Origin: Escherichia coli O127:H6 str. E2348/69
Lineage (GTDB): Bacteria > Pseudomonadota > Gammaproteobacteria > Enterobacterales > Enterobacteriaceae
NCBI RefSeq assembly: GCF_000026545.1
Contig: NC_011601.1
Length of the DNA: 64,000 nt
Reading direction: 5' to 3' (one strand)
Made by a program: the position numbers and the translations under genes. Under the pieces are notes generated by a model. The model saw nothing but the letters and a program-made list of their open reading frames with translations. It did no database searches and was not told the DNA's origin. Numbering within the stretch: position 1 is the first letter of the stretch; every line of letters begins with the position of its first letter. Shown one piece after another: positions 45,477 to 49,017 of this stretch.

Positions 45477-45490
45477 TTTAAATCAATAAA

Positions 45491-46000
45491 TTACCTCACA
45501 TTTAAGTAAACCACGTTCACCTCTTGTGCCGTATTTGTGCCATTGCGACTTATAATCGCATCGATTTTGCTCGCGTGCTCGGTGAGATGCCCGGCTGAAA
45601 GGTGGGCGTATCTTTGAACCATTTCGAGAGTTTCCCATCCTCCCATCTCTTTAAGTGCAAGAAGAGAGACACCGGACTGAACCAGCCAGCTTGCCCAGGT
45701 ATGCCTCAGGTCATGGAAGCGGAAGTTGCTAATGCCTGCCCGCTTTAACGCTCCCTTCCATGCCTTGTTGCTGTCGGTTCTCATCTTCCTTACCGCTGCT
45801 GTTTTTGTTCCGTCGCTTCGGTAGGCAGGTCTGGTGTGGACAAATACCCATCTCTTATGGAGCCCCTGCTGTTTTCTTAATATCTGGCATGCGGTTTCGT
45901 TAAGAGGAACTCCGATCGCATTGCCAGCTTTTGTTTCATCAGGGTGCATCCATGCCATTTTCTTATCCAGATCGACCTGTGACCACTCAAGGTCTGTAAC
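45491..46000 (-). pseudogene. Tyrosine-recombinase (phage-type integrase) C-terminal fragment, truncated by IS insertion
   Basis: Catalytic-domain motifs [16 protein letters not shown] and [10 protein letters not shown]; only about 165 C-terminal codons remain; 5' part cut at IS end near 46001. Confidence 0.75.
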
Positions 46001-46072
46001 TGTAGTGGCACACTGAATTTGGCCACCTGAACAGAGGTGATATGCTCACCTCAGAACAACACAGGTGCTCCA

Positions 46073-46375
46073 ATGAAAAAAAGAAATTTCAGCGCAGAGT
46101 TTAAACGCGAATCCGCTCAACTGGTTGTTGACCAGAACTACACGGTGGCAGATGCCGCCAAAGCTATGGATATCGGCCTTTTCACAATGACAAGATGGGT
46201 CAAACAACTGCGTGATGAGCGTCAGGGCAAAACACCAAAAGCCTCTCCGATAACACCAGAACAAATCGAAATACGTGAGCTGAGGAAAAAGCTACAACGC
46301 ATTGAAATGGAGAATGAAATATTAAAAAAGGCTACCGCGCTCTTGATGTCAGACTCCCTGAACAGTTCTCGATAA
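46073..46375 (+). CDS. insN: IS3-family transposase OrfA (InsN-like HTH protein)
   Basis: [49 protein letters not shown]... 100 aa with HTH and leucine zipper. Confidence 0.85.
46324..46330 (+). promoter_or_regulatory. Programmed -1 ribosomal frameshift slippery heptamer A_AAA_AAG
   Basis: AAAAAAG in orfA zero frame (AAA AAG) near orfA 3' end, with orfB in -1 frame downstream. Confidence 0.6.
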
Positions 46376-46934
46376 TCGGGAAACTCAGAGCGCATTATCC
46401 TGTGGTCACACTCTGCCATGTGTTCGGGGTTCATCGCAGCAGCTACAGATACTGGAAAAACCGTCCTGAAAAACCAGACGGCAGACGGGCTGTATTACGC
46501 AGTCAGGTACTTGAGTTGCATAACATCAGCCATGGTTCTGCCGGGGCAAGAAGCATCGCCACAATGGCAACCCTGATAGGCTTCAGAATGGGGCGCTGGC
46601 TTGCCGGCAGGCTCATGAAAGAACTGGGACTGGTCAGTTCTTTCATGAGCCTGCGCACCGTTATAAACGAGGTGGTCGTGAACATGTCACTATCCCGAAT
46701 CACCTTGGGCGGCAGTTCGCAGTGACAGAGCCAAATCAGGTATGGTGCGGCGACGTGACGTACATCTGGACGGGGAAACGTTGGGCATACCTTGCCGTTG
46801 TTCTCGACCTGTTTGCAAGGAAACCGGTAGGTTGGGCAATGTCGTTCTCTCCAGACAGCAGACTGACCATCAAAGCGCTGAAAATGGCCTGGGAAATCCG
46901 CAGTAAACCAGCCGGGGTAATGTTCCACAGCGAT

Positions 46935-47215
46935 AGTAATAATGCCGGTATCAGTTTTTATCATCACTCTGTTTGCTGTTTAACCAGACTGGTGTGATTA
47001 CTGATGCAGTGAAGACCTTCCCGCATCCTGACTCACACAGCGATCGACCCTTTGTGTCCTGCCCTGGACCTGTCGGTTGCCGGAAGCGCCTTCATGCGAG
47101 GCGTCTCCTCACCGATGCGCGTGACTCAAGAAGGGCCTGACGGTTTGTCTCGTTACTGTCCTGTCCGGGTTATCTGTCTGGAGATTCAACTCTGTTTCCT
47201 CACAGGAGCTCTGTT
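46935..47215 (+). ncRNA. Candidate bridge RNA (guide RNA of IS110-family recombinase) in left non-coding end
   Basis: 281-bp non-coding region upstream of transposase gene; internal 9-mer CACAGCGAT (47036-47044) is identical to the 9 bp flanking the left insertion junction (46926-46934). Confidence 0.35.
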
Positions 47216-48292
47216 ATGGCAGGTAAAGTTACGGAAACCGCTGTTGTGGGTGGCGTGGATACACATAAAAATCTGCACGTTGCCGCTGTCGTAGATCAGA
47301 ACAATAAAGTTCTGGGGACCCAGTTTTTCTCCACAACACGGCAAGGTTACCGGCAGATGCTGGCATGGATGACTTCGTTTGGGGCATTAAAGCGAATTGG
47401 TGTTGAGTGTACAGGCACCTATGGATCAGGTCTGCTTCGCTATTTACAGAATGCCGGGTTAGACGTTCTTGAGGTGACTGCGCCAGATCGGATGGAGCGA
47501 CGCAAACGGGGTAAAAGTGACACGATTGATGCTGAATGTGCCGCTCACGCCGCATTCTCCGGAATAAGAACCGTCACACCCAAAACGCGCAATGGCATGA
47601 TTGAGTCTCTGCGGGTATTAAAAACTTGCCGAAAAACAGCAATATCAGCCCGCAGAGTCGCTCTCCAGATTATCCATTCCAATATTATCTCTGCCCCGGA
47701 TGAATTACGTGAACAGCTCAGAAATATGACGCGTATGCAGCTCATCAGGACTCTGGGATCCTGGCGGCCTGATGCCAGTGAATACCGCAATGTTACCAAC
47801 GTTTATCGTATTTCATTAAAGTCCCTTGCCCGACGCTATCTCGAGTTACATGACGAAATCGCTGATTTGGATGTCATGATTGCGGCAATTGTCGATGAGC
47901 TGGCGCCTGAACTGATTAAACGTAATGCTATTGGATACGAAAGCGCTTCGCAGTTGCTGATCACGGCAGGAGACAATCCCCAACGATTAAGATCAGAATC
48001 AGGTTTTGCGGCACTGTGTGGTGTCAGCCCTGTTCCCGTATCTTCAGGAAAAACGAATCGTTATCGACTTAACCGGGGTGGAGATCGTGCTGCAAATAGT
48101 GCACTTCACATCATTGCCATCGGACGTTTGCGAACTGACGATAAAACGAAGGAATATGTCGCCAGACGAGTAGCGGAAGGGCATACAAAAATGGAAGCAA
48201 TACGCTGCCTGAAGCGCTATATCTCACGCGAAGTTTATACATTACTGCGTAATCAAAACAGGCAGATCAACAGCATCCCGATAACGGCTTGA
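47216..48292 (+). CDS. IS110-family DEDD transposase/recombinase
   Basis: 358-aa ORF; N-terminal RuvC-like motifs [23 protein letters not shown]-terminal [25 protein letters not shown]. Confidence 0.85.
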
Positions 48293-48734
48293 CTCTTAGA
48301 AGGGCGTCCAGGGAAGCCAGTATACAGGCCTGAAATATCAACAAATTCTCTGGCGTTACAGAATAAAGCAAAGTGTCAGTCGGCGGGGAAACTGCTGGGA
48401 TAATAGCCCAATGGAACGCTTCTTCCGCAGTCTGAAAACAGAATGGGTGCCAGCGAATGGTTACGTCGACAAGGACGAGGCCCGGCAGCAAATTAATGAT
48501 TACATATTGAACTACTACAACAGTGTCAGACCTCACCATTATAACGGTGGGTTGACTCCGGAAGAGTCCGAGAACAGGTACCATTTTTACTGTAAAACCG
48601 TGGCCAGTATTACTTGACCACTACTGTTTGAAGATTGTTGTGCCGTATTTGTGACATACACATGACAACATCATGCATCAACTTTCTGTTTGTGCCATCA
48701 ACTATAGCTTAGTGAATGCGGTTAATGCTTGCTA

Positions 48735-48808
48735 AAACAGATAGTTATGATTGGTGCTACAGATTCGTAATGCGAAGGTCGGAGGTTCGACTCCTATTAT
48801 CGGCACCA
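48735..48808 (+). repeat. Degenerate duplicate of thrW 3' portion (ptwF-like pseudo-tRNA / island attachment-site repeat)
   Basis: 48763-48808 matches thrW 3' 46 nt with one mismatch; following ttaaatcaataagttac also resembles sequence after thrW. Confidence 0.6.
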
Positions 48809-48899
48809 CTTAAATCAATAAGTTACACATCATTAATACCTTCCTTATTTTTTGATTGGGACAGATTTGGGACCGATGGGTTCAGGATCGAATCTATTT

Positions 48900-49017
48900 A
48901 CCGTGCGTGTTCGGTAAGGTGATTAGGTGCGAGGTGAGCATATCGACGAACCATTTCGAGAGTTTCCCATCCGCTCATTTTTAAGTGCAAGCAGGGAAAC
49001 ACCGGACTAAACCTATC
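48900..49017 (-). pseudogene. Second short integrase-gene fragment
   Basis: About 115 bp similar to 45575-45690 inside the integrase remnant (shared gaaccatttcgagagtttcccatcc...ttaagtgcaag...caccggact). Confidence 0.45.

Follow-up and report, generated by a model that had tools for sequence, protein, structure and literature searches.

Several elements have been described at the tRNA gene thrW, and a close parallel to the locus studied here is the tandem of the serotype-converting phages SfI and SfX in Shigella flexneri (PMC3306764), which occupies the same attachment site (thrW, downstream of proA). Integration of a second phage at the attL of a resident thrW prophage has been demonstrated experimentally for SfI and SfX (PMC3306764); the incoming phage uses the resident attL, which leaves an arm-core-int junction between the two elements. 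In Escherichia coli K-12, the locus holds CP4-6 (34.3 kb), with thrW on one side and a shifted duplicate of the thrW 3' end (ptwF) on the other, and its far end carries an unrelated integrase gene, intF; in K-12, too, an SfX-type int gene has left a 69-bp tail behind the thrW copy, and 5.8 kb of DNA (yagP-paoDCBA) separates that copy from yagU. The same interval carries the islands PAI III536, vat (CFT073/APEC) and hsd/AbiE (ST131) in ExPEC strains, whose cargo includes vat, sfa, iro, or genes for restriction and abortive infection. The insertion sequence ISEc21 targets IS3-family transposase genes around the codons for the second Asp of the DDE motif and generates no target duplication (Siddiquee et al. 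2024, PMC11187229); its recombination needs target sequence on both sides of the donor, while fewer matching flank bases are tolerated (PMC11187229).

Against this background, the 3.95-kb thrW-yagU interval of E. coli O127:H6 E2348/69 (EPEC) is very probably the stacked remnant of two lambdoid prophages attached at thrW, from which about 16 kb was lost via ISEc21. As in the SfI/SfX tandem, an arm-core-int junction lies between the elements, and the integrase of the prophage nearer to thrW (prophage A) is of the SfX type (98% to SfX Int); unlike that tandem, both prophages are nearly all deleted, the two integrases belong to different subtypes, and no gtr or oac O-antigen modification genes are left. 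The phages HK542, HK446, mEpX2 and ECP1, whose integrase C termini are 98% identical to the prophage A fragment and whose attP arm and core are near-identical to those found here, are complete at 39-40 kb, whereas phage A is represented in E2348/69 by no more than 510 + 138 bp of unique DNA. The thrW islands of CFT073 and ST131 end at the same scar between a decayed integrase gene (intB') and yagU, but the interval in E2348/69 contains IS DNA only and no cargo. Furthermore, the ISEc21 of the published work (PMC11187229) is the same element, its cloned copy having come from another E2348/69 locus; in contrast to the insertions described there, the copy at thrW is flanked by parts of two different IS3 elements, which marks a deletion joint rather than a simple insertion.

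Results

Organization of the thrW-yagU interval

The window, to which all positions refer, is a stretch of 64,000 nucleotides of the E2348/69 genome. The distance from thrW to yagU is 3,953 bp (40,044 bp in K-12), and the interval is composed as follows.

45401-45476, plus strand: thrW, intact tRNA-Thr(CGU) gene (ARAGORN tRNA-Thr(CGT); Rfam RF00005, 71.8 bits)
45431-45476, plus strand: attL core inside thrW, anticodon loop to CCA
45491-46000, minus strand: 3' fragment of the prophage A integrase gene (SfX/HK542 type), residues 218-386 of 386 and stop codon
46001-46934, plus strand: IS-L, an IS3-family element resembling IS911, present with its left 934 bp (left inverted repeat, orfA, and orfB from its 5' end as far as the HSD codons)
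46935-48308, plus strand: ISEc21, IS110 family, 1,374 bp (RefSeq WP_000907661.1, ORF, boundaries)
46935-47215, plus strand: upstream non-coding region of ISEc21, encoding the seekRNA
47216-48292, plus strand: ISEc21 transposase gene, 358-amino-acid DEDD protein (ORF, RefSeq name)
48309-48624, plus strand: IS-R, of the IS3 family but distinct from IS-L, present with its right 316 bp (3' portion of orfB, right inverted repeat)
48625-48762, no strand: non-integrase arm of phage attP, the phage side of the prophage A attR, with TTGTGCC repeats inside
48763-48808, plus strand: attR core, a repeat of the final 46 nt of thrW, equivalent to K-12 ptwF
48809-49021, minus strand: intB', remains of a second, older integrase gene of another type (roughly the 70 C-terminal codons)
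49021-49167, plus strand: right-end scrap of prophage B, covering the 3' half of a gene for a small phage membrane protein
49269-50044, plus strand: resumption of the backbone common with K-12, with the yagU upstream region (96% to K-12 302830-304000)
49430-50044, plus strand: yagU

Every element listed in a preliminary description of this DNA, including the start of yagU at 49430, was confirmed, its position agreeing exactly or to within a few bases. That description had also placed CP4-6 of about 34 kb between thrW and yagU of K-12; the size is right, but CP4-6 lies between thrW and its 3' copy. The alignment to K-12 that it proposed showed that the two strains share the proA-thrW region, the cores, IS911A and the yagU side. 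A blastn comparison with K-12 260000-304000 found only these segments, with neither an intF-type integrase nor CP4-6 content, and homology to CP4-6 was rejected as it amounted to nothing but IS911; the 5.8-kb yagP-paoDCBA segment is likewise absent from E2348/69.

A second copy of the terminal 46 nt of thrW, with one mismatch, lies at 48763-48808, and the likeness extends into the trailing sequence (64 nt, 95%), both as first described; a search of the 64 kb allowing up to three mismatches returned these two matches only (0 expected from 100 shuffles). The attL core of thrW and its trailing sequence match the attP of HK542. Positions 45431-45476 of thrW were supplied by the last phage to integrate, and the copy at 48763-48808 was displaced by the integration of prophage A. 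The copy carries a T-to-G change at 48781, and the simplest reading is that this dead copy mutated privately; inheritance of the G as a thrW allele was rejected, as the attR copies of 377323_2f and 2015C-4136CT1 are wild type. The thrW of 2014C-3338 contains a compensated G50-C64 pair, which had hinted at phage 'repair' of a mutant tRNA. Neither ARAGORN nor Rfam called the copy as a tRNA, and an Rfam scan of 45200-49600 (E ≤ 0.1) detected thrW only, together with one sub-threshold chance match. Of what is left at the locus, thrW alone is functional.

Remnant of an SfX/HK542-type prophage

The ORF at 45491-46000 matched Pfam PF00589 (E = 1.7e-28; model positions 43-170 of 172), bearing out the earlier identification of a C-terminal tyrosine integrase fragment on the minus strand 3' of thrW. 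Its product is 97-98% identical to the integrases of HK542, HK446, mEpX2, ECP1 and SfX (tblastn), and its DNA is 99.7% identical to the intact integrase gene of strain 377323_2f as far as position 46000. The 169 codons left exclude the N-terminal arm- and core-binding domains and the catalytic Arg of box I, with TGLRRSN just upstream of the cut. The orientation of the fragment and its 14-bp spacing from thrW are as in intact prophages; those with this type of integrase occupy thrW in CUPF06 and 377323_2f, and HK542/SfX-type phages with 97-98% identical integrases have an attP annotated as matching thrW/ptwF. Given this 97-98% identity to phage integrases (SfX, HK542, HK446 and mEpX2), the integrated elements were lambdoid phages and not the genomic islands initially proposed. 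The accompanying proposal of repeated (tandem) integration followed by deletion is upheld by the HK542-type attP arm, by genomes with the older scar only and by an intermediate in 377323_2f.

At the other end of the remnant, the second core is preceded by the attP arm of HK542, just as the first is followed by HK542 int. This 138-bp arm is near-identical both to the attP annotated in the HK542 record (NC_019769) and to that of SH21PTE31, which is unsplit; A-type and B-type phages have almost identical arms, so its assignment to phage A is by position and not by sequence. The interval thus retains an integrase 3' end beside the tRNA-proximal attachment site, a direct repeat of the core at both ends and the distal attP arm, as in a lambdoid prophage at thrW. 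Between the attachment sites, relatives do carry phage structural, replication and lysis genes, whereas none is present here; only IS DNA runs from the truncated integrase gene to the arm, and the remnant is therefore a scar, not a prophage. Furthermore, with no complete integrase (residues 1-217 are missing) and no xis, the remains are unable to excise.

Two IS3-family elements joined across ISEc21

The integrase fragment is interrupted at 46000/46001 by IS DNA, a junction found in E2348/69 alone. The preliminary description ascribed the cut to one IS911-like element; IS DNA does begin at 46001, but the stretch up to 48624 is a chimera of two IS3-family elements joined across ISEc21. The nested ISEc21 (46935-48308) and the origin of its IS3 flanks from two different elements had gone unnoticed. 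The left part (46001-46934) is 99.9% identical to IS-L of 377323_2f (L012 10494-11426) and only about 67% to IS-R; relative to K-12 IS911A it is 90/88% identical, with 90% over the first 335 bp. The right part belongs to a single unbroken alignment of 1,197 bp (48304-49500; 98.8%) to IS-R and the right flank of 377323_2f (L011 7750-8946), and is only 69% identical to the right part of IS-L; IS-L and IS-R themselves are only about 63-69% identical. The junction of IS-R with the arm is 100% identical in seven other genomes.

ISEc21 is located exactly at the joint of IS-L and IS-R. Its 1,374 bp differ by two mismatches from the norW-hypF copy of the same genome, the left flank ends in CACAGCGAT and the right flank begins with CAGGGAAGCC, and the target is as published. 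The DEDD transposase, the non-coding leader, the lack of a duplication and the position at the second-D site of orfB identify the element as ISEc21. The same site is occupied by ISEc21 in pure IS-L elements and in IS-R-type elements (at least 95 genomes, including another E2348/69 locus). A composite of 46001-48438 seemed widespread at about 98% in many genomes, but the matches proved to be pure IS-L with an inserted ISEc21 and not the chimera.

A single IS911-like IS3 element is not what the sequence contains: the halves are unlike, orfB is split by ISEc21, and the flanks of the composite (AAC left, TGT right) show no target duplication. A simple IS911 insertion into int was rejected on these grounds and, furthermore, the two flanks lie about 40 kb apart in intact phages. 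IS-L of 377323_2f, by comparison, is a simple insertion, because it is bordered by a 3-bp target duplication (CTA). The IS-L/ISEc21/IS-R joint is itself what the main deletion left behind.

An intermediate of 17.8 kb, with an intact integrase gene and two different IS3-family elements, is preserved at thrW in strain 377323_2f. The right flank of this strain differs from that of E2348/69 at 14 of 1,197 positions and its attR copy in the trailing base; 377323_2f is a relative of E2348/69 and not its ancestor, and parts of the thrW locus may have been imported by recombination.

An earlier scar shared among E. coli genomes

The second integrase fragment noted earlier, similar to about 45575-45690, is present: 48887-49021 matches 45555-45691 of the A-type gene at 75-83% identity, while the first ~75 bp after the core are unrelated between the two scraps. 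The reading frame of intB' is broken by an in-frame stop and a 2-bp frameshift, and positions 48810-48980 are 92% identical to the intact integrase gene of SH21PTE31, against 76% to the A type over 48887-49021. The adjoining scrap at 49021-49167, annotated as a hypothetical ORF of 45 amino acids (49030-49167), is 85% identical to a 97-amino-acid gene downstream of the side-tail-fibre genes in lambda-like phages; this late-gene scrap of prophage B was joined to intB' through deletion. No attR core of phage B was left in the 64 kb (thrW-core search, up to three mismatches). The right limit of the prophage B remnant falls somewhere within 49150-49268.

In 2014C-3338 and one ST131 isolate, intB' stands directly behind an intact thrW, and it occurs in CFT073 too. 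A chimeric query of thrW and intB' gave single-piece, full-length matches (98.3-99.4%) in 18 of the 30 genomes listed, the order proA-thrW-intB'-hyp-yagU being confirmed in two of the 18. The thrW-intB'-yagU state is found in CFT073, ST131, E2348/69 and at least several hundred of the complete genomes searched. Since it stands alone in many genomes, this older scar arose first.

Formation of the locus

Comparison with relatives shows that an older phage B integrated at thrW and decayed to the ~210-bp 3' end of its integrase gene and the late-gene scrap. As the comparison also shows, a phage A of SfX/HK542 type then entered the core (anticodon loop to 3' end) of the working thrW, by a mechanism established for SfI and SfX; thrW thereby gained a phage-borne 3' end, and the old 3' end (now 48763-48808) moved about 40 kb downstream, behind the other attP arm. 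As relatives suggest, two different IS3-family elements would next have entered prophage A, IS-L beside int and IS-R 138 bp from the attR core, the latter associated with late-gene loss; this state seems to be preserved in 377323_2f. Subsequently, seekRNA-guided ISEc21 would have entered both IS-L and IS-R at the codons for the second Asp of DDE, and homologous recombination between the two direct 1.37-kb copies would have deleted the interior of ~16 kb, producing IS-L(left)-ISEc21-IS-R(right). Finally, the 826 bp absent next to the left end of IS-L, seen as a difference in the comparison, point to a deletion that would have stripped int of its first 217 codons.

The interior was most likely lost by recombination between two ISEc21 copies, given that this RNA-guided element is known to choose that site in IS3 elements. 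No genome turned up that carried ISEc21 in IS-L and IS-R alike at the thrW locus, so this step is read from the shape of the scar. It is unlikely that the ISEc21 recombinase itself, guided by its seekRNA, deleted the ~16 kb between its targets in IS-L and IS-R in place of host homologous recombination. Both IS3 elements bear the target in direct orientation, the joint falls exactly at the ISEc21 boundaries, and the recombinase, which needs target on both sides, works with reduced flank matches (PMC11187229); however, in the reaction known for it the ends of a single element are brought together as a minicircle and the target is restored, which would leave no ISEc21 between hybrid flanks unless two copies are involved, in which case RecA acting over 1.37 kb at 99.9% identity is simpler. 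Slightly more doubtful still is the broader proposal that the joint records a natural deletion by the RNA-guided recombinase on two of its IS3 targets, with IS110-type elements purging prophage DNA and disabling rival IS3s by programmed recombination and not just RecA homology.

Direct recombination of IS-L with IS-R at the short DDE-motif sequence, with ISEc21 inserting later, is improbable. The two elements share the conserved block ATGTTCCAyAGCGAy/CAGGGmAGCCAsTATACA, and the restored hybrid target would still draw ISEc21, but the longest perfect run near the site is ~8 bp and the overall identity of 63-69% is far under RecA needs; moreover, the switch from IS-L to IS-R exactly at the ISEc21 insertion point would be a coincidence. 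Least probable of all is that there was a single integration, with the further thrW copy and integrase scrap being a local duplication of the attL region or an unsplit attP fragment from the same phage. Although arm, core and int are contiguous as in an attP, and 95% identical to the unsplit attP of SH21PTE31, the divergence of the two integrase scraps (75-83%, with the ~75 unrelated bp) speaks against it, and it is already contradicted by genomes without element A, in which intB' follows intact thrW, with identical downstream sequence.

Discussion

The thrW-yagU locus of E2348/69 is an ordinary and well-understood kind of genome scar that reflects known biology, and its importance is small beyond annotation. 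In annotation, the pseudogenes labelled 'IS3 family transposase' to the left and right of ISEc21 should be kept apart and not be treated as one element. The analysis explains why the thrW hot spot is nearly empty in the reference EPEC strain when other E. coli carry a prophage or island of 10-77 kb there, and it shows the intB' scar to be of old date and wide distribution (CFT073, ST131, E2348/69). Furthermore, the locus illustrates cleanly how a prophage decays, by way of intermediates in sequenced relatives, and how ISEc21 can mark the joint of a deletion between two unlike IS3 elements.

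Traces of two lambdoid prophages at thrW

The window belongs to the chromosome of the enteropathogenic E. coli O127:H6 strain E2348/69. Its segment 45300-49500 corresponds to NZ_LT827011.1 269300-273500 at 100% identity and contains the following features.

Features of the thrW-yagU interval (window coordinates)
45401-45476, thrW, intact tRNA-Thr(CGU) (ARAGORN and Rfam)
45491-46000, minus strand, integrase fragment A, 169 codons (PF00589, E = 1.7e-28, model positions 43-170 of 172)
46001-46934, left 934 bp of IS-L, 99.9% identical to IS-L of the relative 377323_2f
46935-48308, ISEc21, 1,374 bp, between the IS-L and IS-R parts
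48309-48624, right 316 bp of IS-R, inside a single 1,197-bp alignment (48304-49500, 98.8%) reaching the IS-R flank
48625-48762, 138-bp non-integrase arm of attP, left of the second thrW copy, near-identical to HK542 attP up to the core
48763-48808, 3' copy of thrW, last 46 nt, one mismatch
48809-49021, minus strand, intB', about 70 integrase codons with an in-frame stop and a frameshift
49430, start of yagU

The last 46 nt of thrW gave just two matches at ≤3 mismatches across the whole window (shuffles expect none); the likeness between the copies runs on for 18 nt past the CCA end, and each copy is followed by the minus-strand 3' end of a tyrosine-recombinase gene. The thrW 3' copy, two integrase fragments and yagU at 49430 reported in the preliminary description were thus confirmed in full. 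At the protein level, fragment A shares 97-98% identity with integrases from the lambdoid phages HK542, HK446, mEpX2, ECP1, mEp043 and HK75 and from Shigella phage SfX, and attP in the HK542 GenBank record is annotated 'similar to thrW tRNA gene and ptwF tRNA gene in E. coli MG1655'. In CUPF06 and 377323_2f, an intact int of 384-386 codons, at the left end of lambdoid prophages, adjoins thrW in the position and orientation of fragment A. In E2348/69 the integrase sequence breaks off at 46000; on the protein this is directly behind box I (TGLRRSN), so that the first catalytic Arg and both N-terminal DNA-binding domains are absent.

Because 48625-48762 matches the HK542 arm, the locus can be read as attL (thrW 5' part, core, int A) and attR (arm, core, old downstream DNA) of prophage A, the SfX/HK542-type phage. 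The attP/thrW identity block begins one base before the anticodon loop, placing the crossover at or 3' of that loop. The 3' two-thirds of the present thrW is phage-derived and the 48763-48808 copy is the displaced original. The sole mismatch of this copy is a G at 48781 (T-stem position 50); equivalent copies are wild type in 377323_2f, 2015C-4136CT1 and ST131, and the G appears to be a private change. The functional thrW of strain 2014C-3338 (L008 2602-2677) carries a compensatory T-stem pair, G50-C64 replacing T50-A64; G50 of the dead E2348/69 copy, which faces A64, arose independently. TTGTGCC heptamers, conserved in HK542 and K-12, flank the core on both sides (45525-45542 at the int 3' end; 48639-48645 and about 48685-48691 in the arm) and may be arm-type integrase-binding sites.

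The older remnant and the order of integrations

The two integrase fragments are 75-83% identical (45555-45691 versus 48887-49021), and the first ~75 bp after the core are unrelated between them. intB' shares 92% identity with the 3' end of an integrase of another subtype that is intact in SH21PTE31. In that strain an unsplit thrW-type arm-core-integrase attP (L005 9001-9361) is found at some distance from thrW, in a mosaic DLP12-like prophage region to which recombination between prophages presumably moved it. At 49021, intB' runs into the 3' half of a membrane-protein gene of 97 codons (85% identity), which in lambda-like phages sits downstream of the side-tail-fibre genes; a deletion fused the two. 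Since an integrase scrap and a late-region gene are joined, this remnant (B) retains a scrap of each end of an older lambdoid prophage. The search for thrW ends in the window at ≤3 mismatches, yielding two copies only, left no attR core for B. The annotated 45-aa 'hypothetical protein' (49021-49167) is the truncated 3' half of the 97-aa product; a terminator-like hairpin follows its ORF at 49200-49228, with the T-run on the minus strand, and backbone shared with K-12 picks up again at 49269.

A chimeric query representing the older state, proA-thrW fused directly to 48809-49100, gave single-piece full-length matches (98.3-99.4%) in 18 of 30 genomes among the matches listed. Annotation of 2014C-3338 and one ST131 isolate reads proA-thrW-intB'-hypothetical-yagU-ykgJ with no other genes, and between thrW and the shared intB'-yagU scar CFT073 carries the vat island and another ST131 isolate a 10.8-kb hsdRMS/AbiE island. 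The latter element (L003 3158-14060) runs from thrW to its displaced copy and encodes type I restriction-modification, an AbiE toxin-antitoxin and an intF-like pseudo-integrase; ST131 is thus polymorphic at thrW, the bare thrW-intB'-yagU scar occupying L009 1602-1835. The intB' scar is older than fragment A: phage B integrated first, and phage A later entered a working thrW. SfI has been shown experimentally to enter attL of a resident SfX at thrW (PMC3306764), an order that matches exactly the one proposed for E2348/69.

A two-element IS chimera at a deletion joint

The 'IS911-like element' of the preliminary description is a two-element chimera, because its left part is IS-L and its right part IS-R, both of the IS3 family and only 63-69% identical; ISEc21 sits at their exact joint. 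IS-L orfB contains, at 46607-46654, a perfect inverted repeat of 20 nt whose arms are 8 nt apart; the repeat is presumably also present in the 99.9% identical IS-L of 377323_2f. Compared with IS911, about 17 nt seem to have been overwritten by the reverse complement of upstream sequence, as in quasipalindrome-templated mutation.

The IS-arm junction (48624/48625) is 100% identical in seven other genomes, 377323_2f among them; the int-IS junction (46000/46001) was found only in three E2348/69 assemblies. The 17.8-kb remnant of 377323_2f comprises thrW, an intact SfX-type int and IS-L (1,250 bp, IS911-like, 3-bp CTA duplication), an interior with the early genes Ea22, exo, bet, gam and a truncated P followed by an inverse autotransporter and ybcN-ninE-ybcO, and then IS-R (1,258 bp, without duplication), arm, core copy, intB' and yagU. 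Relative to it, E2348/69 lacks 826 bp beside the IS-L left end (L012 9668-10493), containing the first 217 int codons; this second, independent difference is typical of IS-adjacent deletion.

Siddiquee et al. (Nat Commun 2024, PMC11187229) showed that a seekRNA, encoded in the non-coding stretch upstream, guides ISEc21, a member of the IS110 family. In nature the element targets certain IS3-family transposases at the codons surrounding the second Asp of the DDE motif, and its insertion produces no target duplication. The thrW-locus site reads ...TTCCACAGCGAT/ISEc21/CAGGGAAGCC..., with IS-L as left and IS-R as right flank, splitting orfB at the HSD/QG codons; the homologous sites of IS-L and IS-R differ at few positions only. 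ISEc21 fills the same site in pure IS-L elements of other genomes and, across at least 95 E. coli genomes, in elements of the IS-R type, and thus inactivates two different IS3 lineages. E2348/69 itself carries a complete IS-R::ISEc21 between norW and hypF (L015, NZ_LT827011.1 3023348-3025935), whose ISEc21 matches the thrW copy at all but 2 of 1,374 bases. We infer that the simplest route to the chimera is double insertion, in which ISEc21 would have entered IS-L as well as IS-R within the prophage remnant, after which the ~16-kb interior would have been lost through homologous recombination between the two ISEc21 copies in direct orientation; no genome with ISEc21 in both elements at the thrW locus was found. 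The ISEc21 recombinase itself may instead have made the deletion, the one interpretation that has some novelty, but RecA recombination between two copies is the more parsimonious account.

Comparison with K-12

In K-12 MG1655, CP4-6 (262898-297205, 34.3 kb, intF at the far end) lies between thrW and the thrW 3' copy; after that copy come 69 bp from the tail of an SfX-type int, yagP-paoDCBA and yagU; thrW and yagU are 40,044 bp apart, versus 3,953 bp in E2348/69. The preliminary description, placing about 34 kb of CP4-6 between thrW and yagU, had the size roughly right and the limits wrong, as CP4-6 ends at the thrW 3' copy. Its contrast of an island remnant instead of a prophage has to be reversed, since the E2348/69 remnants stem from true lambdoid phages; besides IS911 sequence, nothing of CP4-6 was found in the window. 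The K-12 tail after ptwF (L002 37257-37325; K-12 297256-297324), about 69 bp, shares 90% identity with window 45477-45545. In the K-12 lineage, too, an SfX-type prophage therefore occupied thrW before CP4-6 did.

Discussion

thrW is on record as a hot spot of integration (PMC7545054), all components of the locus are of well-described kinds, and in the RefSeq annotation every part is already labelled pseudogene or IS; apart from thrW itself, there is no sign of a present function. Tandem thrW integration was known experimentally and the ISEc21 target from publication. New in our analysis are the proposed order in which events took place, the intermediate states preserved in relatives, and the identification of the IS block as a two-element chimera at a deletion joint.
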